Below, one piece after another: positions 11,640-42,423 of a DNA stretch of 47,153 bases. The notes beneath the pieces are model-generated. The model was not told the origin of the DNA. It ran no database searches and was given only the letters and a program-made list of their open reading frames with translations. Made by a program: the position numbers and the translations under genes. This stretch comes from Diploschistes diacapsis (taxonomy: Eukaryota), in contig JALAIB010000022.1 in the NCBI GenBank assembly GCA_023645945.1, positions 1 through 47,153 on the forward strand, in the 5' to 3' direction. How positions within the stretch are numbered: the first letter of the stretch is position 1; each line of letters begins with the position of its first letter.

Positions 11640-14600
11640 ATACGCTCCAAGCAGCCTAGATTCCTCCCGGACCCCTACAAAAACTTGTATCGCTGTCCGA
11701 AGGCCACGGGTTGACGGTTTTTTCGACCTTTCTTTCCTTGTAATTGTTCACAGGTTCGTAACATATCAGCGCCAAGTCATTGTGCTAACATGTATAGGTA
11801 CACCGCAACTGCTGACCTAGCAGTGCTGACACCCATATCAATCCGCGGCATGGTACCCGAGACCATCAATGCATATGGAAACATGAGCAGCACAAGCCTT
11901 GTTAGGTCGAAGCTAAATAGCGAGGATACACTGCTATCCTTAGCTCGCAAAACCGCTAAAGCGATCGATTTTGCCATGGACAATGCTTTCGTTCCGCTGG
12001 AAAAGGTCCTTGCCAGCATTGAAAATCAGTCGCACAATACCGGATCTTATTCACGTGGAACGATATATCACAATACAAAGGTCCCATCAATTTTCGGGAT
12101 CGTTCTTCGGAAATGCTTGTGAAGAAGACTACCATGTTTGGAATATGCTTCAATGTATCACTTAAGTTCGACTATGCTATCGCAAGCGTAGAATATGACG
12201 CAGACAGGTTGAGTCCAAATTTCTTGAAACGACTGCTTACAGCTTTTGTTGATCTTGTGCATTCCATCTGTACCACGGAACTGGTGCTACCGCTTCGGTA
12301 TCTGAGCGGATACACCAGCATGGAGCTAGACCACATCCTCCGCTTCTCGAATGCAAATTTGCGAATGGAAGGCGATAGAAACGCCTTGTTACACCAGGGG
12401 TTCGAGCATCAGGCGACGGTTTTGCCGGAAAACATCGCTATAGCCTTTTGGAGTAAAGGTTGTTATCTGTCGACGACATATCAGGGGCTGGACTCTCAAG
12501 TCTGTTTACCGTCCCTTCATATTTATTATTGTTGTGCTGACTTTCTTCAAGTCAACCTAAATTGCAGCTGTACTAAAGCAAAAGTACAATATCGGACTTG
12601 GTCATTGTGTTCCTGTATACCTTGACCAATCGCCAGGACTTCTGGCTGCTATTCTCGGGGTTCTCAAAGCCGGAGCGATTTACACTCCTTTGGCCAGAGA
12701 CGGGAGCTGGTCTTTGAAGCATATTCAACATATATTACAAATCTGTAATGCCAAGGTCATCTTGGGTGATACTGCAATGATGCCAGGACTTAATATGACA
12801 ACATACATGATTTACCAAAAGTTGCGACGGAATCATCAAGAGAATGTATTGCACTTGGTTCAAGCATTGCATACGTGATCTGGACTTCTGGAACTACCGG
12901 GAATCCGAAGGGCATCCCGATAAAGCATTCATCAGCTGCTACTGCAATCTCCAGTATGTCAAAGGATATGTATCAAAGAACCTCCGGAGATCGCGTGTTT
13001 CAGTTTGCCAGTCCTATCTTTGACGCTTCTATTGAAGACTACTTCTCAGCCTTATCAGTGGGAGCTACATTGTGCATGGCGCCTCGTCAAGAATTACTCG
13101 AGGATATTGAATCAGCCATGATTGCCCTCCAACCAACATCGGCGACATTAACGGCTAGTGTGGCCGCACTAATAAACCCAGAAGTAATCCCGCTCAAGAC
13201 GCTGGTGGTAGCGGGAGAACCCTTTACGGAGTCGGTTAAAGAGGCATGGGCCCATAGCTCAACACGTTTAATCAACGCATATGGGCCAGCTGAAAATGCC
13301 ATGCTTTCGTAAGTTACTATACGTGATATCAAAGGAACCCTTAGCTTGTACTAACTTTAATAGGACTTTCAGCGTCGTAGAGACAGATACAGACATACGC
13401 TCAATTGGAATGCCATTTCCAACAGTGCGAATTGTTATACTAGATCCTTTACTTTGTCCGACACCGCTGTTAGTAGAAGGCGAAATCTTCCTAGGAGGGC
13501 CACAGCTTTTTGAGAATTACCTTGGTTTGGATCCGACTTCTCAAAATGTACAGATTGACCACGATCAATTTGGCCGACTCTATCGAACTGGCGATCTGGG
13601 TTACTTCGATGAAGCTGGGCAAATAATGTTTTCTGGTCGCAGCGACAGTCAAGTTAAGTTCAGAGGACAACGCGTTGAGCTGAGTGGTCTGAGCATGATT
13701 ATTGAACAGTGCCCAACAGTCAGCCGAGCTGTCGTCTTGGTAGTGATGAACAAGCTCATTGCATTCGTCGTATGGACAGGTCCCAATAAAAACAATACAA
13801 AAGATTTGACTGTGGACAAACTAAGTGCTTCTACAGACCGGAGATTGCTATTCTTACAGACCTTCCTTGGGACCAAGGTTTCGGTTGCCACTAATCCTCA
13901 AATCTGGCTAGAGCTGTCATATATGCCCTTTACGACCAGCGGCAAAACTGACTATCGCAGGCTGAAGCTTTGCGCAGAAACCTTAGGACATCATCGAGCT
14001 GAGAATAACGTCGAGCCAAAGAGCCCTTTAGAACAAATAATACATGATTGCTGCTCTACAGTACTTGGTTATGTTTCACTAAGTATAACTGCGAATATCA
14101 TCGAATTAGGACTGGACTCCTTTTCTGCTATGGCCCTTTGGTCCAAATTGCGAAATTCAATTCCGTGGCACACCTGGACACTCCACGATCTATTTTCGTC
14201 CTCAAGTCTCCAAGCATTGGTCCCAACATACCCACCAACGCCATTTGAGCTGTGTCCCACCGCAATCAGAATGCCGTTGGTCTCGACCTATGCCAGTGGA
14301 ATGCACAGACCGGTTTATCCGGCAAGTTCAACTCAGGAGCGCTTCTACTCCTGCCAAGAAATCTACAAAGATGCTACTTATAGCTGTCCCTTCGTATTTG
14401 AGCTGAGAGATCTGGATATTGGAGACATACAGCGAGCTGTCAAAGCAATTATCAAGAGAAATAGTATCTTTCGAACCACATTCACGTACGATAATGGAGT
14501 CCAGCAAGTTATTTCGTCAACCCCGAACTCCACCTTTACAGAACACCACTTGGTACAGCCAGACTATACCTCAAACGAGGCGGAGATGAAACGTATTATC

Positions 14601-17600
14601 GGTGACGACCTGGGCACGCCCTTTAATCTCAACAAAGGCCCTCTGATACGATGCCATGGATTTCGGCTTGACGAAGGGAGGCAGTTTATCTCCCTGAATA
14701 TGCATCATATTATTACGGATGAGTAATCGATACGTCTGTTCAAAAGTGAAGTAATACCCCAATGTTTAACCATCACTCCTGAAGACAGGTCCGAGACCGT
14801 AGCCCGACTGCAATATATTGATTATTGCCTGGAAGAGCAGCGATGCCTTTCTAATCCAGCATTTTATAAAGTCGCGGCAAAATTTTGGGCGAATCATTTG
14901 AAAGGCGTGGCTTTGCCACTGCGTTTGCTTCAATTGCGCAAGGCAAATATTGTCACAAAGTAGCAGAGTATCAGACACAAGGTTGAGCCGCAAAAGGGCG
15001 CTTTCAAATGGATTCGAAATCAGGGGGTAACATCGTTCTCGACTTGCCTTGCTCTGCTCCAAATACTTCTACTTCGCCTTTGGGCTGCGCAAGAGCCCGT
15101 TGTTATTATCCCGGTCTCTCAAAGACCTGATGATACGAACTCAGTCTACGGCTGTTTCATTAACACCGTACCGATACGTGCATCAATGGACGGATCATTA
15201 TCCCTTGAGAAAGCTCCCAAAGACACTGCGAAGCAACTATCGAATATTATTCAACATTCGTACCTGCCTTACAAATCTATTCTTCAACATGGAGAACTTC
15301 ATGCGGATGATATTCAAGTTATGTTTACCTATCATGACGCTGGCCAGAAATCGTATATTGGTTTTACAGAAGCAGAGCATATTCTTCCGACGGAGATAGC
15401 GACTGTAGGTGCTAAGTTTCCACTCAGCCTTTCAGTCATTGAAAGCCGGTTAAACAACACCTCAACGCTAGAGATAGTGCTTGATTACGATGGGCACGAA
15501 TTCTCACATGCTGAGATGACGAGTATTTGTTGCCACTATGCCACGTTGCTGCTTTCAGCGTCGAAAGATAACGGAACCACGCCTATTAGCCAACTGGACA
15601 TTCTCAGCCAAGCAGATAATGTTTTCTTGGGGAACAATCGTGGGAGACTAGAGACTGAAAAAGCTTCGGATTTGCTCGTGCATGAGATTATTCTCGCGCA
15701 GTGTCTGAGGTCACCGAACGCTATAGCCTGTTGGTATGAAGGAATAGAAGAAGTTACATAGAGTGAATTATGGTCAAAGGTTGAGAGGCTCTCGCAGCAC
15801 TTTTCGCGCTTTGACATACTGCAAAATAGCAAGGCATGTATCTTCCTAGATGCGGGTATTGAGCGAATTGTTGCAACTGTGGCCCTACTCCACTGTGGAT
15901 TTGCTTATGTGCCACTGGACGTCCATTCGCCAGCAGCCCGGAACGCTACGATCGTGGAAGACCGCAAACCTCAATTTCTCTTGGTCGCTAATAATTGCCA
16001 AGCAGAATACCTCCAGGCTTTGTAGACCCTGAACGAGGAATTATCAAAGGTTGGCAGTATGGTGGATCTCGAGTTCATCGGCAAGGAGGCTGTCCATGAT
16101 CAGCATTTCTTGCCTCACAGGAGTTGTCGAGCAGACGAGAAGTCGATAGCATATGTGCTGTACACAAGCGGTTCAACCGGCAGACCCAAAGGTGTCCAGA
16201 TTGAGCATCGAGCTATTCGAAATTCGCTACAGGAGCACCAACGTTTGTATCAACTGGGCCCAGGAACACGCCTCTTACAATTAGCCCCTTGGACCTTTGA
16301 TGTGTCGGTTGTTGATATACTTGGAAGACTCACTTGTGGCGCAACTCTCTGTCTTGGAAGTAAGGATTATCTACTTACTGACCTTACCAGAGCTATCAAC
16401 ACTATGAAAATATCACACCTGGCAACAACCCCAACAATGATCTCTTTGTTAACCCCAGCCGAAGTCCCCACAATCTTGGTGCTTGCTATTGGCGGAGAAC
16501 CCATGACAAGAGCTTTGCGCGATACTTGGGGAAACGCTGCAATGCTTCTGAATGTGTATGGTCCAACTGAAACTTGCGTTAACGTTCTTAGCTGCCTGGT
16601 GCGACCGCAATCCGATATCAGTGTTATTGGGCGACCCCTCAATAATAACATAGTATATATATTAGATGAACGACTTTACGAGGTTCCACCAGGTACTCCG
16701 GGACAGCTGGCCATAGGTGGGGTACAAGCTTGCTCGAGGTTACCTAAACAGACCTGACGAGAACAAGCTGTTCATAGAGCATGAGAGATTTGGTAGGCTA
16801 TACTTAACCGGTAAGGCGTGACAAGGTGTTTGTGTTCCAGTAACTCATAACTGTTCAGGAGATCGTGTTAAGTTCATGCATGACGGAAGCATCTCATTTC
16901 TGGGCTGAATTGACAATCAAGTCAAGCTCCGAGGCCAAAGAATCGAGCTTGGCGAAATCGAAGCAATTGTTACTGCTGAACCTGGCGTGGAGCAGGCAGT
17001 CGCCCTTCTTTGTGGCAGTGGATCCGCTGAGTGCCTGGCTGTTAGGTATTGCTTGAGAGGTAGATTGCTAGCCAGTAACAGGACACTCCAAACCCAGCAT
17101 ACCAAGGATTCGTTGGCGATGACTGGTAGACTTCATGCGAGACTAAGCGCCGTCGTACCATCATATCTCGTGCCCAAGTACTGGGTACTGTTGACTTTTA
17201 TGCCGATGACCACGAATTGTAAGATAGACCGCCGGGCACTCAGCATGTTTATCACGACACTATCTACTAGAGAGAAAGCTTTATTTACACACGAGATCAT
17301 CCAGCCAGGTATACGTTCGTCTCAACCTTTATCCACCACGAAAGAGAAGATTATCGGACAGTGTGTTCAAGAGGTCTTGGAAACAGATACGGTTTACAGG
17401 GACAGTAATTTCTTCTCACTCTCTGGCGACTCTATATCGGCGATTAGACTATGTGCGCTTCTACGAAATCGTGGCATTATCATCACGGTGAAAGAGATCT
17501 ATCTTCGACCCACCATTGCTCAGCAGGCAGTTTTCGCGAGATACACTTCATATCGTCTTACAGACACTCCAAGCTATCCGTATGGCACTATTCAGAAAAC

Positions 17601-20600
17601 GCCAATCATGAGCTGGTTCCTTTGGTCATGCAAGAAAAATCCTCACTGGTACAATCAGAGCTACGTCTTGAAACTTTCGAAGGCCCAAGATCTCGAAAGA
17701 ATAGAACTGGCATGGGAAACGATCGTAGCTATGCATCCTATGCTCCGATTTCGGACTCACATCGGGCAGTCTGGTATCGAGGTCACAATCCCAGACACAC
17801 CAGGCACTAACGATTTCCGCGTTTTCTGGTGGGATGTCTTGACAGAGCAACAAGTGTTTGATCTCTCCCTTCATGTACAGTCAGGGCTTCATCTTGGGCA
17901 TGGACCCATCTCCGCATTGGACTGTTCATGTTGGCAGGCAGCAGCTATTGTGCGATAGCTGTACATCATTTAGCTATTGATATCGTTTCTTGGCACATTA
18001 TTCTAGACGATCTTGAGAGGACTCTCCAAGGGCAAATGAAACCTATTCCAGAACACAGCAGTTTCTTCGACTGGTCTAAACATGTCTCACAGCTACGCCA
18101 GCACGAAGGTTTATTGATTCAGCGAAACCAGGAAGTCACCGTCTCGCAGTTTAGACACCCGAATACAAAAATCGCTCCGGCATTCGAAGAGATGTCCATC
18201 TACAACACTGTTTTGTCAAGCCGAGTTCTAAGTTTTAACATCGACCCCTCATCAACGAGCTGGCTCCTAATGGAAGCCAATACTGCCTATCGGACTGAAG
18301 CCGTTGACTTATTACTGAGTGGGCTGGTCATGGCCTTTAAGCGATGGCGGAATATGAACAAGATTGAAATTCGTTTCGCATCTCACGGCCGAGACTTTCG
18401 GAACGAGTCTTTGGATGTATCCAGAACCGTTGGCTGGTTTACCTACATGTTCGATATTTTGCTATCATTTCCTGCGAATACACCCCTAGATCAACGCATC
18501 GCTCACGTAAAAGATGCAAGAAGCAATTGTACCGCCAATTCTGGTTTCTCGAAGCATTTTGAGATAATGACAAACCACCCTGTGATATGCTTCAACTACT
18601 CCGGAGCTTATTCCAACTCGAACGTCAATACAACCTCCCCCGTAATAGAGTTAGCCGAAAACCGTCGCGATGAAGACCCTCAAAACTGCCGCTCTGCCGT
18701 GCTTGATATCGGATGTAGTGTGGTTGATGGATCGCTAATTATGGCTATTATTTACAGTACCGCTCTACACGAGGAACACGAGGTGTCTGCCTTATTAAGG
18801 TTATGGCAGCTGTCAATGGCCGACAAATTGAACTTTTGCCGCGAAAGTCACTATAAATATCACTTCACTTCGAGTGACTTATCCTTCTTCACAATTGAAT
18901 ATGCCGATTTGACAAAGCTTGTGGAGACAAGCCTCCTTCCTTATGGTCTCGAACCCCGTATGGTTGAAAATATTCTTGAAGCAACAGATATGCAACGTGC
19001 GATGGTACTCCAGAGTCAAGAAAGCGGGTGCTATATTGAATCATTCTCCTATGATATCGAGGGTGAGATCGATATTCTAATGTTCATCAAAGCATGGTCG
19101 GAAGTTGTGGCGAAGCACAGCGTTCTCAGAACCGTTTTCGTGCCTTGCGGCCTCCAAGGGCAAAATTGGGACAATCAAATGCTGCAGGTCATTTTAAGGA
19201 TGGATAATCTAGAGGAGCGCGTTTTCTTGGAAAAGCCGAATACAAAAACTTTTACTGCTGAGTACGGAAAATCGCTCACTCGATGCTATATCTACGACAC
19301 CAAGGAGAAAGGCTTTCACTTTACTTGGCAATATCATCATGCTATAGTGGACGGATGGTCTAGCAACATTATTTTGCGAGACTTTGAGAGTGCGTACCTC
19401 GGAAAACACATTGCGAGCATCTCTGAGTTCAAGCAAGCAGCAATACAGATAAATGCCTGGTCTAGGTCTTCGGCAACGGGTGCATTCTGGAGGACGCAAC
19501 TGATGGAGGCTCCGCCTACGATCTTGGTTGATTACACCAATGATACTATGAATAACGACAAAAATCAATTTGACTCTCGTTTTGAATGGGGTCTTGATTG
19601 TTCGGTCAGGAAGCTCGAAGACTTTGCAGCGTCCCACAGCCTCACACCTTCTGTAATATTACGTGCTGCGTGAACAATGACCCTGTCATATTACACCGAT
19701 GAGGAAGATGTAATCTTCGGAGCCACTACATCTGGAAGGGCCCTCGATATTATTGGTATTGAAGATATCGTAGGGCCTTGCATCAATACAGTTCCATTCC
19801 GTGTGCAAATAGACTGGGACGATGAAAAAGGAAAATTTCTGGCAAAAGTCCAGGAGAAAAACACCGCGATCATCGAGCACGAAGCCATGTCCTTACATCA
19901 GATCTACAAAGAGTCAAGAACACAGAATCTTTTCAATACCGTCATCGTTTATCAAAATCATCCCAGATTCAAAGCTAATACAGCTTTACCATTCAAAATG
20001 ACACTGACAAACGTTGAGGAGGCTACGGAAATTCCACTCAATGTAATGATAGGCCAGGATGAGAATGCATTATTTCACGTCACGGTCTTATTACATGGGT
20101 GGAAATTCTCGATACAGTTCCTGCAGAACATACTGACAAGCTTCGGCCTTGCTTTGAGTGGATTATGTACAACTGAGGGATCAACCAAGCAGCAATTAAA
20201 GGATGTGGTCATGTTGAGTAAGTCCCATAAAGACAAGATCAGTTCCTTGGGATGTGGTGTCGGTTCTTCCTTATCTGAGAGTGTTGGTTTATGGCAGATG
20301 TTTGAGGAGCGAGCGTTGTCCGCGCCCAGCAGCCACGCTATGGAATTTCGCCAACCAGCCCAGCAACAAGTGTTTACCTACAAACAAGTTCTTTCCTTGG
20401 CCAAACAAGGGTCACAAAATCTCCTTTCCAGAGGCATTCAGATAGGAGACCGAATAGCATTGTATTTGGACAAATCACCAGCTCTAATATTCGCCATCCT
20501 GTCAATCATACGACTTGGCGCCGCTTGTATACCAATTGAGAAGAATATCCCGGCTGATCGTGTAAAAATGATAGTCCAAGAGTCACAGCCTATATTGGTC

Positions 20601-23017
20601 ATTTTAGATGACCTTGAGGAACACGCTTCGTGGAAAGCCCAGTGTAAAACAATCTTCGTCAGAGATTTCCTTAGTCCGCAATCGATTCTGACAAGTCCAC
20701 TTCCTGAACCTCCTGCTGAGAGTGACCCCAATCGACTCACAGCTATCCTCTTCACTAGTGGCACCACTGGAGTACCGAAAGGTGTCCGTATGCCGCAGCG
20801 ACAGCTCGTTGGTTACGCCACTACTATGGCACGTGCTTATCGCTATGACACTAGCAGTCGAATCTTCTGCTTTTCGCGTTATGTATTTGACGTAGCAATC
20901 AGCGATATCTTTGGTGGATTCTACAGTGGTGCGACGATCTGTCTCGCACCTCAACGAGATACAATAAACAATCTCTCGTACCTGCTGAATCAATTTAGAG
21001 CAACGACAGTGAACCTTACTTCTTCTGTTGCATCTCTCCTAGCACCGGGAGAGATACCCAATCTCAGGTCGATGATATTGACAGGCGAGATATTGACAGG
21101 CGAAGCTCTTACGCCCACTCTCATACAGACCTGGTCACCACTCATTCACGTGGTTAACTCCTATGGTGAGTGAGTGAGCGAGCCATGTTATATCTATGTA
21201 CTCACTACGAGCCAGGTCCTACAGAAGCAGCCGTAATCACGTGGACAGATGTTACGCCCAACTCAGACCCTCGATGCATTGGTGAGGTTGTCTCTGGCAT
21301 GGAAGTTGTGATCCTCAACAAGTGGCATCGGAAAACTCCAATCGGAGTCAAAGGCATCATTTTCACTACTGGCAAGTAACTCTCTATGGGATACCTCAAT
21401 CGGCCAGAACTTACGGCAGATCATTTCATCTACAGTCTAGACTCACCAGACACCCTCATGTACAACACAGGTGTGTCGAGTATTGAATGTTTTTCGAGCA
21501 AGACTGACGATATCAAGGTGACAATGGAGCCTATGACTCTGCAGGAAAAGTGTTGCATCTTGGTCGGAAGGACAATCAGCTCAAGCTCCATGGTCAGCGG
21601 ATTGAACTGACTGCTATAGAAAACGTCATGTCGCAGAATGGTCCAAGTGTCACTGTATGCCTTCTAAAACTTCCTGGTGAAGTCACACAGCTTGTCGCTT
21701 TCTTCCGGCTCGACACTTCTCCCTCAAAGTCGTCGTTCGAAGAGCCCGAAGTGATTCTCAGTCAGAAGGCCGAAATTATTTCACTGCAAATGCGATCAAG
21801 GGCTACACGGGTTCTGCCATCATACATGGTGCCTAAAGCAAACGTGGCGTTAACCTGTCTTCCACTGACCGCAAACGGTAAGGTAGATCGAGTTACCTTA
21901 ACTAAGTGTTATATAGAGAAGTTTCTTCCTCTGCAGGCGGAGGCGCTTGTGGTTCAGATCGTAGAACCAACAACTCTTCTTGAACGAAGCATACATGCCG
22001 TTGTTTCTGAGATGTTCAATCTCTCGCAACTGTCGATCGAGACCGATTTATTCACGTTAGTGCTCGATTCATTATCATGCATGAGGCTGGCCAGCACACT
22101 CAGAAGAAAGCTCAAGCTCCCTGTTAACCTCCAGTGTATTATGGAAAATCGCACTGTCAGAGATTTAGCTGGTAAGCTCAGCAGTCATGTAACAAATCAG
22201 AATGACAAGAGGGCCATAACAGATGTATCAATTATGATCCATTTTTCGTCTCTACCGAACGCAGCCGTTCCCACCGTTTTCTGCTACACCCATCATCGGG
22301 ATTATTCTTCGAATACAGGAACATCATTCAGTACCTGCGCGAGATAAGGGTTGTGGGTATCAATAACCCTAGGTTTGGTAGTTCGAAGGGTTTCCGTAGT
22401 ATTGCCGACATGGCCTTTGAATATGTACGTGATGAAAGCACAAGCCCGGTTCAAGCTAATCAGCATAGTACACTGCGATTACTGAATTTCAGCAAAGAGA
22501 GCCCTACCTCATACTAGGATACTCTTTCGGGGCGCATGTGGCGGTTGAGATTGGCCGCCTGCTTCTCCGTAGGAAACCCAGCTGCGTTGTGAAGCTGATC
22601 TTGGTGGATTCCTCTGCAATTCCTCTTTCTGCAAATTATCCAGCCCCTTCCACCGTGGCCACCGTCGTTAGTCGTCTCGGGCTTGAAAGCATGCCTGTTA
22701 CAACATATGGGGAGAGAGACTTCGTCCAAAATCTTGAATAAGAAGTTGAGCGCAACCTAAGACTGATGGCCAATCACGAGCATGTATTCTACCCAGGAGC
22801 GGCTACTTTTCTCAAGGCGTATGCTTCGCCCGACGCAAGGTCAAAGTATCAAGACGACAAAACCAATGGTTACGCTCATCTGATCGGGGACCTGACTTCG
22901 GACACCATCTACGGTGATCATTACAGAGTGTTCAAGGACGGGGAGTATATTGATCACAATGGTGGAGTTCTGAGGAAAGCTCTTGGTCTGGCCGAGATCA
23001 TTCAGAGTCGCGTTTGA
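11640..23017 (+). pseudogene. Non-ribosomal peptide synthetase pseudogene, [partial C]-A-T-C-A-T-E-C-A-T-TE, 5' end missing
   Basis: A-domain motifs: WTSGTTGNPKG (~12880), YTSGSTGRPKG (~16160), FTSGTTGVPKG (~20750), plus YRTGDL and GRxDxQVK. T domains: LGLDS (~14105), LSGDS (~17420), LVLDS (~22057). C domains: MHHIITDE* (~14700), YHHAIVDGWS (~19332). E domain: HHLAIDIVSW, SRTVGWFT, FNYSG (~17960-18600). TE: GYSFG (~22517). In-frame stops at 12558, 14724, 14961, 15759, 16023, 16906, 19671, 21377 and 22739, and frameshifts at ~16728, ~17920 and ~22285. Introns include 16811-16858, 21166-21215 and 21471-21517. Confidence 0.93.
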
Positions 23018-24178
23018 GACAAGTCCTTCGAAAGCAACGAGGCAGTATGTGACGGAAAGAGACATTGTAAAACGATATTCATGTTACTTTTCTAGTTGGC
23101 ATACCTCTAGATAGTTTACCAGCTCAACATGAGACATGACGTACCCGGCATCGCCCTGTTTAATAGTCCATGCATCGCTCCTTCCTTCTCCACGTCTTTC
23201 TTAATACTGCTATACGTAGGTGCCCATTCTAATTGCCGATCTAACATTTTCTTCCATTGCTGTCCAGCTGTCCATGCTTGCAATGACGCCTCCGTGTAGG
23301 CCAAGTTCACCTCTTCAAGCACTCTTTGGCCAGCAAGCCCAAATGCACGCATTCCCACATCTGCTAGACCGGCCTCTTCTCTAGTAAGTGCATCCAACAG
23401 ACTTCAGCAGCATGGACGCCCTCCTTGGGCGGGATGGTACATTGTAGACAGCCACGTCGGTCTCCCAATGTGCCACCAACCACTCCACGACTCGAATAGG
23501 AGCCTACTCGTCTCTGCCACCGCACCTTCAATTTTAAATCTCTGTGGTTTTGTAGGAGCTGCTTCCAGAGTCGGGCCAATCGTTCCCGACTAAAGTGCGA
23601 AGAGCGTAGATGTATTGCAGCCGGATTGGGCCCAGATATCACGACGTCAACGCGAGGCCTAACCGACAAAAATATGCGAGAGCGCCACCTGCACGTAAGA
23701 AGCCGGCGCGCCGTCAATCAAGATCCATTTGTCCTCCACCCAGTTTGGTATGTTGGAGACCTCCTTTGCTCTCTGGTACCAGGGTCGCGGAAGGACGGTA
23801 CGATCTTGCAGTCAATTGTGAATGGAAGGAGCCCTCGCAATCCATAAGCTTTACGCATGAGGAGAACGAGGAGGCCTGGAATATCAGCACGAGCGACTGT
23901 ACATATAGAAAAGCTGGGAGGCTTGGCGGGCCATCGTCATTAGTAATCCGCTTGTATCAATCATGTGATTAAAGCGCAGTGAGCTTGCCAGCAAACTCAG
24001 AAATATATCCCTTCTGAAATCCAACAGCTATATGCTGAATGGAACTGCTGCCATCTATTTCAAAACCAAGACTTACCCAAACAGAGGACAATCCAGCATT
24101 TTCAGATCTCTGAGTGTCAAAATCTCCCTTCTCAGCCGTGTTGGACATCACCGATCTTGACGATGCTCGATCTTCAGA

Positions 24179-25312
24179 ATGGGCACGCCTGCCGATTATC
24201 TCCCCAGGGAGCTATCTCATGCTACGATCAACGCTCTCATAGAATCTATAGGCCTCCCAAAGCCAAGCCAAATAACCATGCCACACGTACTAGCGCAGTA
24301 TCACTCCATCTATATGCTCTCCTTCCCCAGCGAGGATCTGGTCCTTCGTGTCTCCGGGCCCCACCTACCGAAGATCAAGACCGAGAATGAGGCTGCAATC
24401 ATGGCTTGGGTGTCGAAGAACACTTCCATTCCCGTTCCGCGTGCGGTAGGATATAATTCGTCGACTAAGAACGCTCTGGGCTACGAGTACATTCTTCCTT
24501 CGCGCGCGCCAGGCCATGCTCTCAGCGATGTCTACAAGTCTCTCAACGAGGCACGGATCAGCGCTATCATAGATGAGCTAATCGACATGCTCGCTCAGCT
24601 ACATAGTCATGAGTGGCCGCAAATTGGAGGCCTCAGGTTTGACAAGGCTGGAGGATTCGAGGTGGGACCGGTATTGGAGGAGACTTTCTGGCAGGTACCC
24701 GATATCGTCAAGTACTGGCCTGCTGGCGAGAGCGTTGACACGCTTAACATTGCTGGCCCCTTCCCATCATACGTCGAATACATTACCGCACACGTCCGGA
24801 AATATATCTATCTAATTAAGGTTCATGAATCGCTGGCCTTTATGCGAGATATTATACCTAGGCTCGAGATTTTCTTGAATGCGCTTACAAGAGACGCCGA
24901 TGAGTTGAATCAGGTGAAGTTACGTCTCGCTCACAAAGATCTCCATTTTGCGAACGTGTTGTACGACGTTGATGCCCGCAAAATCACTGCTATCCTCGAT
25001 TGGGAGTTTTCAGGCATCGTCCCATTTACAAGATGGAACCCAACCAGAACTTTCTTGTGGAATGGTCATGATAGTGAGGATGATCTTGCGGAGAAACAAC
25101 GATTGTTCCAGATCTTTCTCGATCGATGCCATGTTGGTAATATCAAGATTCCCGAGGATGCAGCGTTCTCGTCTCCAAAGCAAGAAGACATGCAGTTGGC
25201 AGCCAACTTCTTACGGGCAATCACAGAGGTCACTCCGCGCAGTCAGAAAATAGATGTCGTTGGAGGCTGGAAAGATGCGGTACTGCAACGAATATCGTCC
25301 TTCGGGGCATAG
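24179..25312 (+). CDS. Aminoglycoside phosphotransferase (APH)/protein-kinase-like family protein
   Basis: Intact 377-aa ORF with LVLRVSG, KTENEAAIMAWV..NTSIPVP, the Brenner motif HKDLHFANVL and ILDWEFSG. Confidence 0.88.
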   Translation: MGTPADYLPRELSHATINALIESIGLPKPSQITMPHVLAQYHSIYMLSFPSEDLVLRVSGPHLPKIKTENEAAIMAWVSKNTSIPVPRAVGYNSSTKNALGYEYILPSRAPGHALSDVYKSLNEARISAIIDELIDMLAQLHSHEWPQIGGLRFDKAGGFEVGPVLEETFWQVPDIVKYWPAGESVDTLNIAGPFPSYVEYITAHVRKYIYLIKVHESLAFMRDIIPRLEIFLNALTRDADELNQVKLRLAHKDLHFANVLYDVDARKITAILDWEFSGIVPFTRWNPTRTFLWNGHDSEDDLAEKQRLFQIFLDRCHVGNIKIPEDAAFSSPKQEDMQLAANFLRAITEVTPRSQKIDVVGGWKDAVLQRISSFGA

Positions 25313-25975: not shown

Positions 25976-27092
25976 CACACGTGTTTGACGTTATGTAAGA
26001 TGAAGACCCTAGTACTGTAGGTCTACTTGGCAGCTACCCCGTGCACTTAGTGAGAGCAACGTAGCCTGCAATCCCAGAAAGCATGAGTCCAACATCAAAG
26101 GCTCCTTCGACAGAGACTTGCTGAATAGAGAATGAAACCAAACATCTGATGTATGTCCCAATCACATACTGATAGACAGAGGAGAAAGTGGTAGGCTAAC
26201 ATGCTATTATAGTCCTTCGCTTCGCTTAGGAATGAGTGACGAAGCGTCTTACAGAAATAACTCCTTCCAACAAGTCAGCATTCTAGCTATGTCTCTAACT
26301 TGTCGTGAAGTATTGCGCATGATGACGGTGAATGCGACATGTCTCGCCTGCGCCTCGGAAGGGCTGAAAGGGCGTGGTGCTGAATGGTTTAGAATGGCCT
26401 TTTCACCGACTTACTCTATAGCTACAACGTGCACGTGGCTTGGAGTAAGTATCCATGCTACTATATTTGTGCTATCACTACGCCGAATATCACCTTTGGA
26501 TACTACCCTTCCTGGCGGGCTGTCTATATCTGCTCTGAGATATAAGGCCCCCACGCATTCAACTTGAAGGTTCGTGCTCCACTCCAGCAAAAATTACTGG
26601 GTTGCATCGGACGACTCGCCTCTTCCCAATCATGAACATCAGTCATCAACCAACAAGACTGGTCTGAAGCTGATGCAGTACCGAGAGCCTCTATGAAGAT
26701 GATACCTCCGTCAGAGAACAAACACCGCCCACTATTGTCTGAGGCCCTCCAGAGATGCTACACAGATCCATCCTGCTTTGGTCCAGCCTCAATCCCTCGC
26801 CGTAGGTATGGGGAACACCATTCCGGCTTGGCACTATTGATGATCATGCTGCGTGTTGTAAATATGGGCATTGTTTTCAGCTCTGAGAACGCCGATGGCT
26901 TGGAGTTGGATTCACGCCTGCTTATCAGCTTCTGGAGACCCTGATTGTCCCTTATAAAGACCGTTGATGTCCCACCGACTCCTTCTGGATCTTCCAGTAC
27001 AGTTTCATTCTATACATTGTTACATCCCACGTTATTTCATATTTCGTACAAAAGTTTCGTTTCCATAGTCCCGTCTTTCTTTTATAACGACC

Positions 27093-28399
27093 ATGAGGTT
27101 CCAGCTCCTAGGTCTTGTTGCCCTGCTGGCCGGGAGCGAAGTTGCTCTGGCCAGCACCAAGCAAACCGTTTACTGCCAGGGCTCAGGGAACTGCGACCCC
27201 AAGGCCGGGCCATCCACCACGATCAAGACGACCATCGCCGCTGCCAAGCGTGATGTCCCATGGCTTCACGCCGCCGTCAAGAGGGATGTCGAGGCAATGG
27301 ACACATTGACCTCGCTGTTCCGAAGGGACCCAGACTTCGAGTTTGCCATGTCCATCCTTGGTATGATCTGCAATTGGAGCCCCGAGATTTTCGAACTGCG
27401 ATATTAATACATCCTACAGCACGTAACGCCGCGGCCGCCGACAAGAGCGTCAGTCAGATTGTTGCCGACATCCATGCCGGTACCGTCGACCCCATCATCG
27501 TCGGGGCCGCCAAGGCCAAGGGTCTTATCAAAGGTACTGTGAAAGGTGTCAGCAAGGCACGTCGTGGCCTTGAGGGCCGAGCCCAGAACGCCGCTGCTGG
27601 CTCCAAGAAAGGCGGCAGCGGTGCGCAGGGTAAAAGCATCGGCGGTAACAAGGGCGAAACCCACTCCGCCGCCGAAATCGCCGAGCATATCACCTCCGGC
27701 GGCCACATTCCCGAGAGCATTAAAAAAGCCCTCGCGGAGTCCCCTCATTACAAAACCAATGAGAAGTCTGCCTTGGGCGGCAAAAAGTCCGGCGGGGAGA
27801 ATGGTGCTTCCAAGACTGGTGGCCCCAAGGGCGCAGCCAAGAAGGAGGGCACCAAGGCTCGCCGCGACGCTGGCTCCCTATTCGATTTCGATTTCGAAGA
27901 CATCTTCGCCCGCGCCGACAAGAAGGAGGTGCACCTGGAAGATATCTCCAAACTCGTCGACAAGGCCCAGGATGACCAGAAGGTGGCCGACGAGATCCTC
28001 AAGGACATCAATGCCAACGATAAGATCAAGTACCACGCCAAGAAGCTCGCCGTCAAGTATGGCGATGCCGAGGAGGATGGTGATGTCAGCCTGGACGACA
28101 TCTCCTCCATCGTCAGCGCCGCCAATGACGACGAGAAAGCCAAGAAGGCCGTCATGAAGTTTTTCAACAAGGACAAAGTGCAAGCCGTCACTTCCAAGCT
28201 GATCAAGGACCACGTCACCAAGGATAACAAGGACAAGAAGGACAAGAAGGACAAGAAAGACAAGAAGGGCAAGCGCGATGCCGAGGCCGACACTGACTTG
28301 GAGGATTTCTACCTCGCGGCTCGCGAGGCGGAGGCTGAGCCGGAGTTCGACTTCGACGAGGGACTCTTCGTCCGCGACTTTGACGAGTACAGCTACTAG
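27093..28399 (+). CDS. Secreted multi-peptide precursor with Kex2 (KR/RR) and Ste13 (EA/DA/EP) type processing sites, 415 aa, 2 exons
   Basis: Exons 27093-27360 and 27420-28399. The intron GTATGA...TACAG joins the two track ORFs in frame. It has a signal peptide MRFQLLGLVALLAGSEVALA, dibasic sites AKR/D, VKR/D, FRR/D, ARR/G, ARR/D and GKR/DAEAD, and AAR/EAEAEPE. Codon bias is strongly GC3, with TATAAA at ~26953. Confidence 0.85.
28220..28270 (+). repeat. In-frame 9-bp tandem repeat encoding (KDK)n
   Basis: aaggataac aaggacaag aaggacaag aaggacaag aaagacaag. Confidence 0.85.
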
Positions 28400-30259: not shown

Positions 30260-32141
30260 CTAAGCAATTCCATCCATGCCAATATCCTCATTGGCGGCAG
30301 CTGCGGGGGCAGTACCGTTAGTGGCAGGGGCAGCTTCACCGTTAGGCGCAGGACCGCCAGTAAAGTAGTCGGTCATCTCAGCGTCCAGCTGATCGGCCGT
30401 CTTCGGCTTGGGGCGGCCGGCGTTCCGACCACGGCGGACACGACCACGGGCACCGCGAACACCACGACCAGCACCGCGAGTAGAGGCATCAATGGCCTTG
30501 GTAACACCAGCTTGCTTGGGTTGGACCCTAGTAGATTTCCTAATCAAGTTCAGCGTTTGTCGAAGATTTTGGAGCTTTGACAACCTACGAGATACGATCG
30601 CCTATGCTCTTAACAGGCTCAACTGTGCGGGAAGCGTCAACAACAAGCTCTATCTATTACGGGGTCAGTGATTGAGGGGTATCATCGAAGACGATGCATA
30701 CCTTCATAGGACGCCCATCAACAAGAAGGCCGTTGAGCTTGGCGACGGCTTCGTTGGCCATGCCTGGCTTGTTGAAGATGATGGTGGCAATGCCACGGCT
30801 AGCACCATTGGGGCCATATTGGAGCGAGACCTTCTTGGTATTGCCTACAGACTTGCTGAAATATTCCTAGAATGGTAAAGATGGCCCAGGTCAGCGGATA
30901 ATTCTCAATTGAAACATCAGAGACTGAAATGCAATCGTCTATCAGGTGGTCAAAGCTTTGAGGGCGATCCCGAAGCAAAAAGACATTGGCATCAACGTGG
31001 ATATCCTAGGCGAGCACCAGCGAGAGCAGCAGCAGCGGTTAGTGAGTCAGCTGAAAAACCTTCGGCATCCATGCGACAAAGTAAGTTCCTAAAGAATCGC
31101 CAAAAAGCCAAGAATCAACAATTCCTCGTCTCAGGACCATGCTAGACGCATCAAACATCACGAAGTCCTGCCCTCTCGCGAAGAGCCTGGACGCTAAGAG
31201 GCGACATGGACCGACTCAACAGTCATGATATATTGAGAGCCCATCCAGGAACGCAATGCATTCCACAATCTCTCAAAACCCATCTCTTGAAGAAGTTTGA
31301 GAATAACAGCCATAGGGCAACAAATTCGCCGGCGCAGGTTCGCCAAAAGATCCACAATAAAAAATTGTTCCTAGAAATTGTACCCCAGATTGCGAGAATA
31401 GACCGGGCGATAGGACCTCGCCGATGTGGACACGCTGCTGCTGGTTGCATTTCTCGCTGATGCTCTAGGAAGTTGCACGTAGAATGTTTGGCGCCGTCGA
31501 GAAAAAACTGTCTTCACCTGACCAAAGTCAAGCTCAAGTTTCACATCTAAGCTTGCTAAGCGTGCTTGCCAGGCAGCTTGTAACGCAGAGCTAGACAGTG
31601 ACAGAACTTGCTTACAAGCTCAACTTCAACATACTCTGCATCAGGCTAATGAACAAGCGAGCGAAAGTTGCGGGAAGGAGCTGCAGGATGATGCAGTAAC
31701 TCAAGCGAGCATACTAGCAATCCTAATGGAAACCCATCTCTTAAGTGTTGTTCCGCAAGATGTCAAGACAAGAACCTGGCGACCGAGAATGGATAAAGCA
31801 TGGTGATGAAAATCGACGTTGTAGCCTCGTGATTCAACATACCTTAATCATAGGCTCACCGACATCTGGAGGCTAAGAAAAGGTTAATTGATGCTCCGCG
31901 TGCGTGTTACCAATCAACGTACCAAGTTGCTCACAATAATCTTCTGATCACCGCCAGTAACAGATGTAGCTGCGGCGACTTTGACTGCAGCAGCCTTAGA
32001 AGTAGCAGCCCGAGTATTTTTTTGGATTCCTCCGGTGGGTGCGGCTCTGGCGCCAGCACGGCGTCCACGCCCACGCCCGCGTCCAGCAGTGCGGCGGTTT
32101 GAGACGATCTCGTCAAGAGACTGGTCAAGTTTTCCAGACAT
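30260..32141 (-). CDS. YRA1: mRNA export adaptor Yra1/ALYREF (THO4 family, RRM)
   Basis: Exons (minus strand) 32141-31923, 31872-31843, 30866-30702, 30653-30589 and 30527-30260. Motifs: N-box MSGKLDQSLDEI, an RGG region, RRM IIVSNL/PPDVGEPMIK/EYFSKSVG...YGPNGASRGIATIIF...LNGLLVDGRPMK/IELVVDA, and C-box KPKTADQLDAEMTDYF. Confidence 0.93.
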
Positions 32142-36528: not shown

Positions 36529-37821
36529 CTACAAGAAGTAGTCATTCCTTCGTCCCGTAGCAGCTGGTACGGCGCGCATAGACGAGTCTACGGCAGAAAA
36601 GATGTCGAACTTCGAAACAAGGTCTTCGCCAACGTTCATAATGGAAGCGACGTTCCCGCAGCGATAGCAGTAGTTGGGTGCACTCCATACCGTGACAACA
36701 GACCTGTCATCGAAATGCCACTTGAAACCCTCGTTGACCAGCTGGTGCGCGCGAGCAATGCGTTCAATGCCATTGACATGGTTGAATTCAGTGGCAACCT
36801 TGTCTCCAAATAACCAACCAGCTCCACGTGGACTCACTGCCCAGGTACCAACTTCTTCTGGGTCGCTCCAAACCAGATCACAGAAGGCGCCCTCATGCGG
36901 AATCTCCTGGGCACGAGCGACAACACGAACCTGATCAAGGGTACGAATCTCGGGACTTAGGCCACCGTGTACACAAAGAACTTTCCCATCGACAAGCGCA
37001 CCGAGCGGCAAAAAGTCGAAGACTTGACAGGCCGCTTTCCAAACAGATGCGTTCCCATACTTCTGCTGACATTCCTCATAGAACCCGTAGACTTGGGTGA
37101 TCTGGCGCGACTCATGGTTCCCACGAATAAGTGTTATGCGGTTAGGATAACTAGAAGGATCAATGGATGATATGTGGATATCTTGGGGCTCACCCTACCG
37201 AGCTTTGAGACAAAGCAGCAAGGTTAAAGTCTCGAGACTAAAGTAACCTCTATCGACAAAATCACCCATGAAGATGAAGTTCTGGTTACCAGGCAACCCT
37301 TGATGGCCTTCCTTAGAGTCACCCATCTCGCGTTCGACATTGCGACTGCGTCCGCGCTGCTCCTCTTCAACATCGTCATCTTCGGTCTCGGTTTCGGTAT
37401 CCACGGCACTGCCGACATTGCTGCTCTCACTCTCCTTGCTCTCTTCTACTTTACTTCCCCTCATCTTTTTCTTAAGCTTAGGGTCGGTAATCTCGCTAGG
37501 AGGTTCGATGTCCTCAGCTCTGATACGCGCACGCGACGGATTTTCCGTCTCCGCTGGCTCCTCACCTGGCATCCCGCCAGCAACACGAAAGAGCTCGAGC
37601 AGGTCGTAGAATTGCCCATGAATATCGCCGCAAATTGTAACAGGAGTAGCGACAGGTTGCACATTCGACTCTTCCATCAACAACTCCTTGCAGATCTCAA
37701 ATAGTTGCTTCATCACCATCTCTGGCAAGTATTTGTTCTTCTTCGCTTGATCAAGCCATTCGTCAAGGTCGGCACGCCGACTCAGCTTAGCTGGTCCTGG
37801 CTGAGGAACCTTTGGTGCCAT
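36529..37821 (-). CDS. SIT4: Ser/Thr protein phosphatase, PP6/Sit4 type
   Basis: Exons 37821-37199 and 37150-36529. PPP motifs GDIHGQ, GDFVDRG, GNHE and [12 protein letters not shown]-terminal DYFL, and [17 protein letters not shown]. Confidence 0.9.
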
Positions 37822-38187
37822 GCCTCTTGTTACAGGTAGGCGGCTTAAAGAAGTTTGAGCTCTTGCAAGCTTGTCGTATGCCTTGGCAATGCTGTGGGCG
37901 TTCTTTAGCAGGGAGTACACAAATGGCATTAAGGAAATAAGGTACCGTTCTTTTGCCAAGCTTCCATGCGGGCCACTTCCGCTGTGTTCATCTATGGCAC
38001 TGTTTGCTGACATTCCCCGTTATCTCCGCACCAACTATCTAGGGCAGCGATGTTGTTTCAGTAATGGAATTGTAGACTTCTTCCACAAGAACAGGCCACG
38101 AATGATAGTGGTAGGAGGTGATAAATATCGACTGTGGTGAAGCTGTGGCAAGTCATACACCGCTGAAAGACCCGGATTGTCCAAAAG

Positions 38188-40070
38188 ATGGCAGCACCAG
38201 CACCTGCGCGTCCAATATCAATCAAGTCTAGAGAGGCTGGTAGGGCAGGTGGTGTTCTTCCTGCACCTTCGATATCCGACAAATCACGTACGAATCATTT
38301 AAACGGTACACCAAGCAGATCAAGTGCGCAGAGACTGAAGGTCATTGTCCGGAGACTTGCCCCTGGACTTACTGAAGCGGAATTTTCTACGTTTCTCGGC
38401 GATGAGTGGAAAGCTGGGAACAGTAGGACTGACTGGATTTCTTACCGGCAGGGCAGGATATCAAAAGAGTAAGAGAGGCACACTTGTCCCTAGTCTATGC
38501 TAAGCTGCATAGTCCATCTAAACCATCCAGGCCGTCGAGAGCATATCTGCATCTTACTGCTGAACAGTATCTTGCCCACCTATCAGATAAGGTGCGCAAG
38601 ACATCATTTACAGATGCCAAAGGATCTTCCAATGACTCAGTCCTCCTTGGGCCACCTATCGTTGAATTTGCACCCTACGGCCGCCTACCTACTAACAAGC
38701 CCCGTCGAGACGCTCGACAAGGAACCATAGATCAAGACCAGGAGTTTATAGAGTTCCTTGAAAGCCTTACAAATCCCATACCCAGGGTGGCGAACATCGA
38801 TGTTACGGCAGAGAAAGAAACCAAAGCTGGTGAAGCAAAGATGGTGACTCCTCTAATCCAGTATCTTAAAGACAAGAAAGCAAATAAAAGTAAGGAGCTA
38901 GTCACGCCAAGTAAGCCTTCAAAGCACGGGCGCCAGGAGTCCAAAGATAATAAAAATCCGCCGCCTGAGAAGAAGGCCCCCCCTAAAGGAGGTAAAGACA
39001 ATACTGGCGGTACAACAGAAAAGAGACCCGCGACTCCCGCAAAAACAGAGAAGGCTGCTCGAGAGACACCCAAAGCTACTGACAAGCAGCAAATGGTCCC
39101 TACAAGGCCGATAACTCCTGCCTCCGCATCTAAGACTACTCCTGAGCCAGCTGCTGCTCAAGCTGCCGCTCAAGCAATGGGGTCGCCAGCGGCTAAACCG
39201 GAAAGGCGAAGAGAAAGGGGGAGTGCTAGTGCTGCTGCCAAAATACTACAAAGGGATTTGGGTATTGTCCAGAGCCCGCAGACTCGGCGTAAGAGAGACA
39301 ACACCCCCAGTGCCGGCGTAGCCTCTTCTGCATTACCTCAAGCAAACTCTGTTACCGCAACTGAGGGCATCTCCGCCAACGCCCCCCCCGCTCAGATGGC
39401 ATTGATGACCCCTAGTCCATCAGGCGCAGCACCGGCTCCCTACCAACCACCGACGGCGCCGGCAGCTGCGAGGAACCAAGCCAAAGCGAGTTCAAGCCAG
39501 ACCATCCACGCTCAAGCTAAGCCGTCTCCGCCAATTGCGCCAAAAAGTGGGCCTCCAGCATCTATTACCCCAGGAGCTACACAAGCTTTTCTCAAGCATG
39601 CAAATCCATCTCAGGGTGTTACAGAATCTCTGCTAGAAGAAGCGTTTGCTCCGTTCGGCATGGTTCAAAGGGTTGAGATTGACAAGAAGAAAGGATTTGC
39701 CTACGTTGACTTTGCTGACTCCGACGGCCTCCAGAAAGCCATTGCTGCGAGCCCAGTCATGGTTGGGCAAGGACAAGTGGTTGTGCTTGAGAGGAAGACT
39801 GGGGCTTCTCTGCACAACCGGAACGCCCGTGGCGGTGGGGCGGTGCCCGCTGTCAGAGGTGGAGTTACACCACCAGCTGCCAAAGGGTCCAGAGGGGGAA
39901 GTGTTCGTGGTAGGGGTGGACGCTCTCAGCAAAGTGTTTCGAAGGCTACAGCGAATCCAGCACCTGCTCCTGCTTCGACAGCACAATCAGATGGCGCGGC
40001 TGCGCAAACTCCAATGAAGCCTAGACCTACGGCTGCAGAAACAAGACCGGCATCAAAACCACCATGTTAA
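38188..40070 (+). CDS. UPF3: Nonsense-mediated decay factor Upf3 (Smg4/UPF3 domain plus C-terminal RRM)
   Basis: Exons 38188-38468 and 38513-40070. Motifs RLKVIVRRLAPGLTEAEF, KDPSKPSRPSRAYL, PIVEFAPY and DARQGTIDQDQEFIEFLESL, with a C-terminal RRM AFLKHANPSQGVTE...KKGFAYVDF. Confidence 0.9.
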
Positions 40071-41714: not shown

Positions 41715-42423
41715 CGCGGGGTGGTACCATGATCTTGATGATTGAGGAAAGCCAGTATGGTGGTGGAAGTCGCAACTGCAAACATGTGTATCGATCAAGC
41801 TTGCAAATAGGGTTACTTTGTGTGCAAAGTAATGAGATGGAAAATCCCTAAGCATGGACAGAAACACTGGTGGCTGTGAGTTATGCTGACATCAGGTTTG
41901 TGATGTGTGATTGTTACGCCTTGTCAAATGCGTCCTTAACGCAGCCTCCTGCCCCTTTTTACCTTGTTGTGCATATATAATGAAAAGCTTATGCCTGCCG
42001 TGAGGCCAACCCTGAGCTTCAGCTCCTTCATTGAGGCTCCGTCAGTAACTGTAGGTAAGTTCAATATCTTAGAGTTTCGAGCTTGCATTAACGCTTTCCA
42101 CGCTGATCTTGTATACAAGCCGCTTCTTGATCGTAGGCAAAACAGTGGAGAAATTCCTCAAGCCGTCCGAGACTACAAAGCCATAAGTGTTTGAGAGTAC
42201 CCCATGAACACTGTTGAGCTAACACTACCCTCACCTTGAGCACTAACCAGAGACTACATATAACAATTGGCAAGTCTTAACGTATCTGTTGCGGCGTCCA
42301 CAGTCTTTGGCCTTCAACTCTAACTACTATTTAAGGTCATCCAATCGCCCTTCACGCCCAGCTTCTTTTCCACCCTCATCTCAGCTGAGAGTTCACATTC
42401 ATCAACCATCAACTACCAGAATT

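Follow-up and report, generated by a model that had tools for sequence, protein, structure and literature searches.

A two-exon gene of Diploschistes diacapsis appears to encode a secreted precursor that would be processed in the Kex2/Kex1/Ste13 manner to yield folded, lysine-rich modules and short acidic-aromatic peptides; judged from the sequence and its homologs, we give this reading a probability of about 0.65. The gene lies in the stretch of DNA that we call the window, positions 1-47,153 of JALAIB010000022.1, to which all gene and feature coordinates refer. In the proposed pathway, removal of the signal peptide would come first, as the precursor enters the secretory pathway. A Kex2-type Golgi convertase would cut after arginine, at six dibasic sites and, less certainly, at five sites of the form [LI]-x-x-R. 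A Kex1-type carboxypeptidase would then remove the C-terminal basic residues, and a Ste13-type dipeptidyl aminopeptidase would remove X-Ala and X-Pro dipeptides from the N-termini. Two classes of product would result. The first would comprise three Lys-rich units: the module M1, the module M2 and its Gly/Lys linkers, and the helical module M3, which is duplicated. The second would comprise six or seven short acidic-aromatic peptides, each of about 7-13 residues once trimmed. Our guess, by analogy, is that both classes act extracellularly.

Is the gene real? Exon 1 (27093-27360) and exon 2 (27420-28399) lie on the + strand, running from an ATG at 27093 to a stop codon at 28397-28399, and together encode 415 residues. 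The reading frame is restored by removing a 59-nt GT..AG intron, without which the exon 1 frame would stop after 104 residues. The annotated Xylographa bjoerkii protein (P0005) matches exon 1 at E=3e-12 and continues unbroken into the start of exon 2; the splice is supported because this protein is contiguous across the same junction. By these signs the two-exon model is a real gene. A preliminary description of this DNA had placed the gene and its intron at exactly these positions, and every segment that it listed is present after splicing. It had also called the gene highly expressed on the strength of its GC content at third codon positions (GC3). The GC3 of 0.76 is indeed the highest of the 14 window open reading frames (ORFs) compared, the remaining ORFs ranging from 0.43 to 0.64, a codon bias that would fit high expression.

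The predicted signal peptide, judged by eye and with simple hydropathy numbers, has a mean Kyte-Doolittle value of 2.11 over residues 3-14 and alanines at -3 and -1 before S21, in agreement with the earlier claim. Its end, ..ALA|STK, is kept in the Xylographa protein, the sole homolog with an N-terminus.

The argument for processing turns on arginine. The protein has 15 arginines, one of them within the signal peptide, and all 14 of the mature protein fall in 11 junctions; its 56 lysines sit elsewhere. Six junctions are of the type [KR]R, five of these being followed by Asp, and five are of the type [LI]-x-x-R. That all 11 P1 arginines should fit [KR]R or [LI]xxR was equalled in none of 20,000 full shuffles of the mature protein. 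A second control, in which the K and R labels were permuted over the basic positions, also equalled it in none of 20,000 trials. Digestion in silico at the 11 junctions gives 12 pieces, each different from the others: four long, net-basic pieces of 33, 47, 95 and 121 residues, and eight short ones, including six acidic-aromatic ones whose net charges run from -1 to -6. X-Ala/X-Pro dipeptides follow R375 (two) and R391 (three).

Are the junctions conserved? We counted in the alignment columns of the window P1 arginines, using for each column only the homologs that cover it. At R254, before the helical module, Arg is present in 29/29 homologs, with Leu or Ile at P4 in all 29. R375, after the helical module, is Arg in 28/28 and dibasic in 27 of these; R391, a junction of the L-x-A-R then [DE]A type, is Arg in 24/25, and R408 in 12/13. 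Toward the N-terminus, R91 is Arg in 11 of 13 homologs, the remaining two having Arg one column off, and R138 and R238 are Arg in 14/18 and 21/28, respectively. At R143 the same column holds Arg in 1/20, a matter of alignment offset, as L-E-A-R occurs shortly after the dibasic site in most rows. Lys is never found in any of these eight columns, although the family has more Lys (640) than Arg (446). The L-F-[QR]-R|D-P-D-F junction is conserved in the Xylographa protein. Counted from the site contexts, X-Ala follows the C-terminal junctions in 21/28, 23/24 and 11/12 homologs. In the 33 family sequences, 243 of the 446 arginines (54%) are followed by Asp or Glu, against 8% of the 640 lysines, and these 243 R|[DE] sites have Leu at P4 in 143 cases, Tyr at P3 in 87, and at P2 Glu in 82, Ala in 63 and Lys or Arg in 44; these family-wide counts are not independent, since the sequences are related and some are near-duplicates.

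How does this pattern compare with the published behavior of the processing enzymes? P1 Arg is described as near-invariant for Kex2, with Lys or Arg preferred at P2 and others, including Glu, tolerated, and with Leu or another aliphatic residue at P4, giving an LxxR motif (PMC8528282). Residues that are acidic or small, at P1', P2' and P4', are said to mark the sites truly cleaved (PMC2515848), and a run of X-Ala/X-Pro after the site is the Ste13 signature of alpha-factor-like precursors (PMC6339444). We favor a Golgi-processed polyprotein because the junction pattern matches this extended Kex2 specificity together with Ste13-type dipeptide runs; the Arg-only P1 columns fit Kex2, which is strict for Arg at P1. 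It seems likely from the sequence that the six dibasic sites are cleaved. We are less sure of the five monobasic sites because of their P2 residues, though the alignment shows no other junctions of the family to be as strictly conserved.

The junctions also avoid the parts of the protein that are predicted to fold. An AlphaFold model of exon 2 (326 residues, 32 aligned sequences) has a mean predicted local distance difference test score (pLDDT) of 71. M1 (model residues 9-40) and M2 (82-113) are each modelled as strand-helix-helix-strand with pLDDT of about 90, and M3a+M3b as a helical bundle with pLDDT of 94-96. The linkers, including the flanks of M2, fall below 50, as do 93 of the 326 modelled residues. 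The junctions at model residues 2, 49, 54, 149, 165, 286, 302 and 319 all lie beyond the confident modules; those from R138 to R408 are outside the segments of pLDDT >=90, mostly in stretches below 60. A separate model of M1+M2 gave a predicted template modelling score (pTM) of 0.49, with the modules at pLDDT 68-80 and M1 at 76-80. M3 is duplicated internally, M3a and M3b being 39% identical over 41 residues (E=2e-6). M1 and M2 have no similarity by BLASTP, though they share the same order of strands and helices in the models. The basic segments, the payloads of the preliminary description, are modelled as small folded modules rather than simple cationic peptides.

The folds offer no functional clue, because neither model matches a solved structure convincingly. 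For the whole exon 2 model the best Foldseek match has E 5.1 and the best VIA-align match Z 4.7. For M1+M2 the best VIA-align Z is 2.8, and Foldseek returned no match. A match of the helical bundle to CARD/death-domain-like bundles (VIA-align Z 4.3, root-mean-square deviation 3.4 over 73 residues) was set aside, as it is within the range common for helical bundles.

Several observations weigh against processing as proposed. In the model a single long helix takes in the KDKK tail together with the first of the acidic C-terminal segments, its pLDDT falling from 83 to 46; this could mean an intact helical tail. In the five monobasic sites the P2 position is occupied by A, G, A, A and V, and cleavage there is less certain because these residues are outside the set named as tolerated by Kex2 (Arg, Thr, Pro, Glu, Ile; PMC8528282). 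There is no site between M3a and M3b in the window protein, unlike other members of the family. Finally, KR52/53, KR63/64 and the cysteine pair are missing from the Xylographa protein. The expectation of the preliminary description that the sites would be conserved in homologs is borne out at the main junctions, which are Arg and never Lys, and fails at these two in the Xylographa protein, where its two-cysteine peptide also lacks the cysteines.

Might the protein then be secreted and remain whole, as a hydrophilic, partly disordered protein of the wall, matrix or desiccation type, with R-[DE] and L-x-x-R serving a structural role, for example in salt-bridged amphipathic helices? A composition rich in K, A, D and G would suit such a protein, as would the many modelled residues of low pLDDT, the helical drawing of the C-terminal tail, the P2 residues that are poor for Kex2, and the near-neutral net charge of the mature protein (+1). 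It would, however, leave unexplained why Arg is never replaced by Lys in the eight junction columns of so Lys-rich a family, why X-Ala/X-Pro runs stand directly after junctions, and why the junctions avoid the folded modules. We consider an unprocessed protein unlikely.

A different question is whether cleavage occurs by another protease that recognizes basic residues, for instance an aspartyl protease of the yapsin type or a trypsin-like enzyme outside the cell. This might apply to the five monobasic sites, with their non-preferred P2 residues. Yapsins accept Lys as well as Arg, whereas Lys is never at P1 in the junction columns. In addition, Leu or Ile at P4, acidic P1' and P2', and the KR and RR sites all fit the published Kex2 profile (PMC8528282, PMC2515848), and we think such a protease very unlikely. 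Most improbable of all is a RiPP (ribosomally synthesized, post-translationally modified peptide) precursor of the dikaritin/ustiloxin type, in which Kex2-released acidic cores with Tyr or Phe would be cyclised by DUF3328 (UstY) oxidases: the signal peptide, the Kex2-type sites, the tandem Tyr-containing cores of the relatives, and a report of DUF3328 genes in Lecanoromycetes with two RiPP clans lacking an identified precursor (PMC12048977) speak for it, but in the window protein the acidic segments differ from one another and are for the most part Phe-based, dikaritin precursors are not characterized by large folded modules, and among the 91 window ORFs scanned there was no DUF3328 gene of the sort described close to dikaritin precursors (PMC12048977), nor any tyrosinase or methyltransferase domain. 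The 91 were stop-to-stop ORFs of >=150 residues window-wide, >=80 in 22-34 kb, and >=90 in 1-12 and 40-47 kb, a few overlapping ORFs of those sizes being omitted from the domain scan.

Returning to Kex2-type processing, the organization of the family bears on which pieces would be products. A signal peptide is followed by an acidic-aromatic segment that ends [IL]-x-A-R, then by M1 and a dibasic site. A few residues past this site comes L-E-x-R, then a disordered linker, M2 and a second linker, which ends in [KR]R or x-R followed by Asp. Next come from 0 to 12 tandem acidic units of the type D-x-x-x-L-Y-E-R, and then a helical M3 module or two, KR with [DE]A after it, between one and three terminal units, and an acidic C-terminus, usually with Tyr or Phe at or near the end. 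Each terminal unit joins an X-Ala/X-Pro run to a short aromatic peptide with L-E-A-R at its end. Where a homolog has two M3 copies, an Arg site usually separates them, in several cases L-x-x-R or KR. Digestion in silico of 32 sequences gives a uniform M3 unit of 57-58 residues in 19 of them, and 0-12 tandem acidic 5-10-mers.

Two variations in the family may be recorded here. After M2, most relatives (P0003-P0011, P0016-P0027) have a Pro-rich motif, H-Y-L-x-P-G-Q-T-P-x-N-P-T-A-P-P, in place of which the window protein has Gly/Lys-rich sequence, as do P0001 and P0002, the two relatives closest to it. An aromatic residue is terminal in most members, and relatives P0009 and P0013 end in ..F-D-D-E-L, which we take to resemble an endoplasmic reticulum (ER)-retention signal of the HDEL/DDEL type.

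Are the acidic-aromatic segments spacers, as the preliminary description had it? In the relatives the acidic units are multiplied in tandem, with no basic segment in between, up to 12 in P0029, and their copy number varies among the close relatives P0011, P0018 and P0019. Because of this amplification without basic segments, and this variable copy number, the acidic units resemble products, such as the cores of alpha-factor precursors and of the KEP class (Kex2-processed repeat proteins), more than passive spacers, and they are probably genuine, copy-number-amplified products. Column conservation does not separate the two classes, being 0.38-0.52 for the modules and 0.48-0.57 for the acidic segments.

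What might the products do? One tentative idea, which we think rather unlikely to be correct, is a prohormone-like system specific to lichen fungi, in which one precursor would yield short acidic peptides rich in Tyr/Phe, multiplied to a dozen tandem copies in some species, along with small folded Lys-rich proteins, and these would act as extracellular signals to the photobiont or among hyphae, or would bind cations or calcium oxalate at the hyphal surface. If it were so, precursors built on monobasic L-x-x-R sites would be a fungal class invisible to the existing KEP surveys, which are reportedly those of Le Marquer 2019 and Umemura 2020.

How widely is the family distributed? The window protein has no match to a Pfam family. 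With phmmer, 1.84 billion representative proteins yielded 16 matches at E<=0.001, and a profile search gave 24 at E<=1e-5, for about 30 relatives in all; the nearest are 47-58% identical to the window protein. Most are gene calls from metagenome assemblies, truncated at the N-terminus and beginning near the intron. The three named matches, each labelled a hypothetical protein, come from Xylographa bjoerkii, Lambiella insularis and Varicellaria rhodocarpa, all three of the subclass Ostropomycetidae of the Lecanoromycetes. We seem to be dealing with an unnamed family restricted, so far as the matches go, to lichen-forming Lecanoromycetes, a restriction that is provisional because a low-complexity query may miss distant relatives. 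A Pfam search with 32 family members gave scattered matches only, the best at E 0.0046, and the ESM Atlas held no usable match for the window protein or the relative P0020. A single sequence-profile match in the PDB, to an ABC-transporter binding protein at E 0.027, was taken as noise. Metagenome scans for related DNA loci gave no confirmed relative, and neither tblastn nor the family hidden Markov model, applied to six frames, found a second copy in the 47-kb window. Full-text searches on Kex2 processing in lichens and on repeat-containing secretomes in Lecanoromycetes gave no paper whose listing or excerpted text describes the family.

Features of the precursor gene and its predicted segments (window coordinates; aa, amino acid residues of the 415-residue product)
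Feature	Position	Strand	Basis or remark
TATAAA box, putative function	26953..26958	+	About 135 nt 5' of the ATG; read from sequence
Signal peptide, aa 1-20, predicted cut A20|S21	27093..27152	+	Hydropathy, Ala at -3/-1; P0005
Segment aa 21-53, carries both Cys, KR at end	27153..27251	+	Cys pair and KR not kept in P0005
Two short segments, aa 54-64 (KR end) and aa 65-78 (L-F-R-R end)	27252..27326	+	Second junction kept in P0005
Acidic-aromatic segment aa 79-91, across the intron, I-L-A-R end	27327..27424	+	Strongly conserved in P0005
Intron, 59 nt, GT..AG	27361..27419	+	Frame restored; P0005 contiguous
M1 segment aa 92-138, net +5, RR end; folded about aa 98-129	27425..27565	+	Model and homologs
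Five-residue mini-segment aa 139-143, L-E-G-R end	27566..27580	+	Similar L-E-x-R/L-E-A-R in most homologs
Segment aa 144-238, net +9, RR end: Gly/Lys-rich disordered, M2 (about aa 171-202), second Gly/Lys-rich	27581..27865	+	Model and homologs
Acidic-aromatic segment aa 239-254, net -4, I-F-A-R end	27866..27913	+	Homolog columns
Helical pair M3a+M3b with KDKK-repeat tail, aa 255-375, KR end	27914..28276	+	Model, internal duplication
Acidic-aromatic segment aa 376-391, opens with two X-Ala dipeptides, L-A-A-R end	28277..28324	+	Homolog columns
Acidic-aromatic segment aa 392-408, opens with three X-Ala/X-Pro dipeptides, L-F-V-R end	28325..28375	+	Homolog columns
C-terminal acidic-aromatic heptapeptide aa 409-415, and stop	28376..28399	+	Segment digest; acidic end with Tyr or Phe at or near the last residue in most homologs too

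About 4.4 kb separates the precursor gene from a multi-module nonribosomal peptide synthetase (NRPS) gene upstream of it, at about 11715-22741, with an APH-like kinase gene at 24161-25312 between the two. The NRPS (11715-22741, + strand) has adenylation (A), thiolation (T) and condensation (C) domains and a terminal thioesterase, is divided into at least ten stop-to-stop ORF pieces, and has a GC3 of about 0.46. Its ORFs 17862-19673 and 19674-21173 are contiguous and in one frame, and a single Condensation domain (profile positions 2-257 and 261-455) spans the stop between them. This in-frame stop, at 19671-19673 in the translation ..LRAA*TM.., occupies a position at which we presume Trp to be usual. 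The NRPS looks like a nonsense-mutated pseudogene, and a functional link between it and the precursor gene was rejected on account of the stop inside the condensation domain.

Elsewhere in the window, the best named matches of a UPF3 gene at 38433-40070 are about 50% identical and occur in Lecanoromycetes only, which places the window in that lineage. An ORF at 30260-30601 (-), in the otherwise ORF-poor 28.4-32.6 kb, matches FoP_duplication (Friend of PRMT1 C-terminal duplication) at E=3e-7 and probably represents one exon of a gene for an mRNA-export adaptor. A Metallophos (calcineurin-like phosphoesterase) gene at 36529-38019 (-) is split into two ORFs that adjoin in one frame, and the match skips profile positions 25-61 from one to the other; this gap looks like a stop-containing intron rather than a broken gene. 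Long ORFs without a Pfam match are found at 3256-4485 (-, 409 residues, with a raised GC3 of 0.61), 42247-43110 (+, 287 residues) and 45256-46014 (-, 252 residues).

Where does the precursor stand among known systems? It would work like the alpha-factor precursors, the KEPs, Ece1 and Rep1 and seems to belong to none of these groups; on sequence grounds we would call it a lineage-restricted mixed precursor that leans heavily on L-x-x-R sites. With Saccharomyces prepro-alpha-factor and other alpha-pheromone-type precursors, which are matured by Kex2, Kex1 and Ste13, it shares a signal peptide and the succession of KR, an X-Ala/X-Pro run and a short peptide (PMC6339444). This layout is held by the C-terminal third of the window protein and its relatives, with KR or another junction followed by Ste13-type dipeptides at R375 and R391 (21/28 and 23/24 in the family). 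It differs in that there is no sequence similarity, the window peptides end at L-x-x-R and not at the next KR, and folded Lys-rich modules make up two thirds of the protein. The window protein has no repeated core, identical or alpha-pheromone-like, and no match to a Pfam pheromone family.

KEPs, as defined, carry at least three tandem near-identical repeats of at least 8 residues between dibasic KR, KK, RK or RR (PMC7329392). The likeness lies in a secreted precursor of several peptides with many Kex2-type sites, whose N-terminal ER signal peptide is indicated in the window protein by a hydrophobic core and an AxA motif, and in relatives with tandem near-identical acidic units of variable copy number. 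In the window protein itself the 12 segments differ, and the sole repeat, M3a/M3b, has no site between its copies. The available portions of the main text of the KEP surveys do not mention lichens (PMC6339444, PMC7329392), and a supplementary table gives the lichen fungus Umbilicaria pustulata by accession only. Would such surveys detect the present family? KEP pipelines would miss the repeats of the relatives, because their separators, E-R or A-R, are monobasic.

The peptides of Candida albicans Ece1, the candidalysin precursor, are similar in size and hydrophobic. Ece1, a Kex2 substrate, resembles the window protein in having a signal peptide and several non-identical peptides split by KR (PMC2515848), and differs in that the window protein alternates acidic peptides with folded basic modules and has monobasic sites too. 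Homology to Ece1 was not indicated by Pfam for the window protein or 32 members, nor by any such name among the 16 phmmer matches, Ece1 itself not being compared directly. Rep1 of Ustilago maydis, the repellent precursor, is a repetitive secreted protein that Kex2 divides into at least eight surface-active peptides (PMC7329392), and it sets a precedent for products of this kind with a role in wall or matrix; there is no homology, and the Rep1 products are alike, whereas the window protein would give two very different product classes. The K2PP effectors (Kex2-processed pro-domain effectors) use the extended L-x-x-R besides KR and RR, in disordered regions that precede a folded domain (PMC8528282). 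They have a single N-terminal pro-domain cut and one folded effector domain, whereas the window protein has about 11 junctions over its full length, eleven by our count, and three folded units.

A 2025 survey of lichen RiPP clusters found genes with a signal peptide and Kex2 sites and without repeats, and the excerpted portions of that survey do not describe the window family (PMC12048977). A role has been assigned to very few of the proteins that lichen-forming fungi secrete, and lichen peptide signalling is essentially unexplored. The present family has neither a name nor a Pfam model, yet its sequence predicts exact, testable cleavage sites and products. The comparison with known precursors suggests that surveys confined to dibasic sites with identical repeats overlook one class of multi-peptide precursors in fungi.

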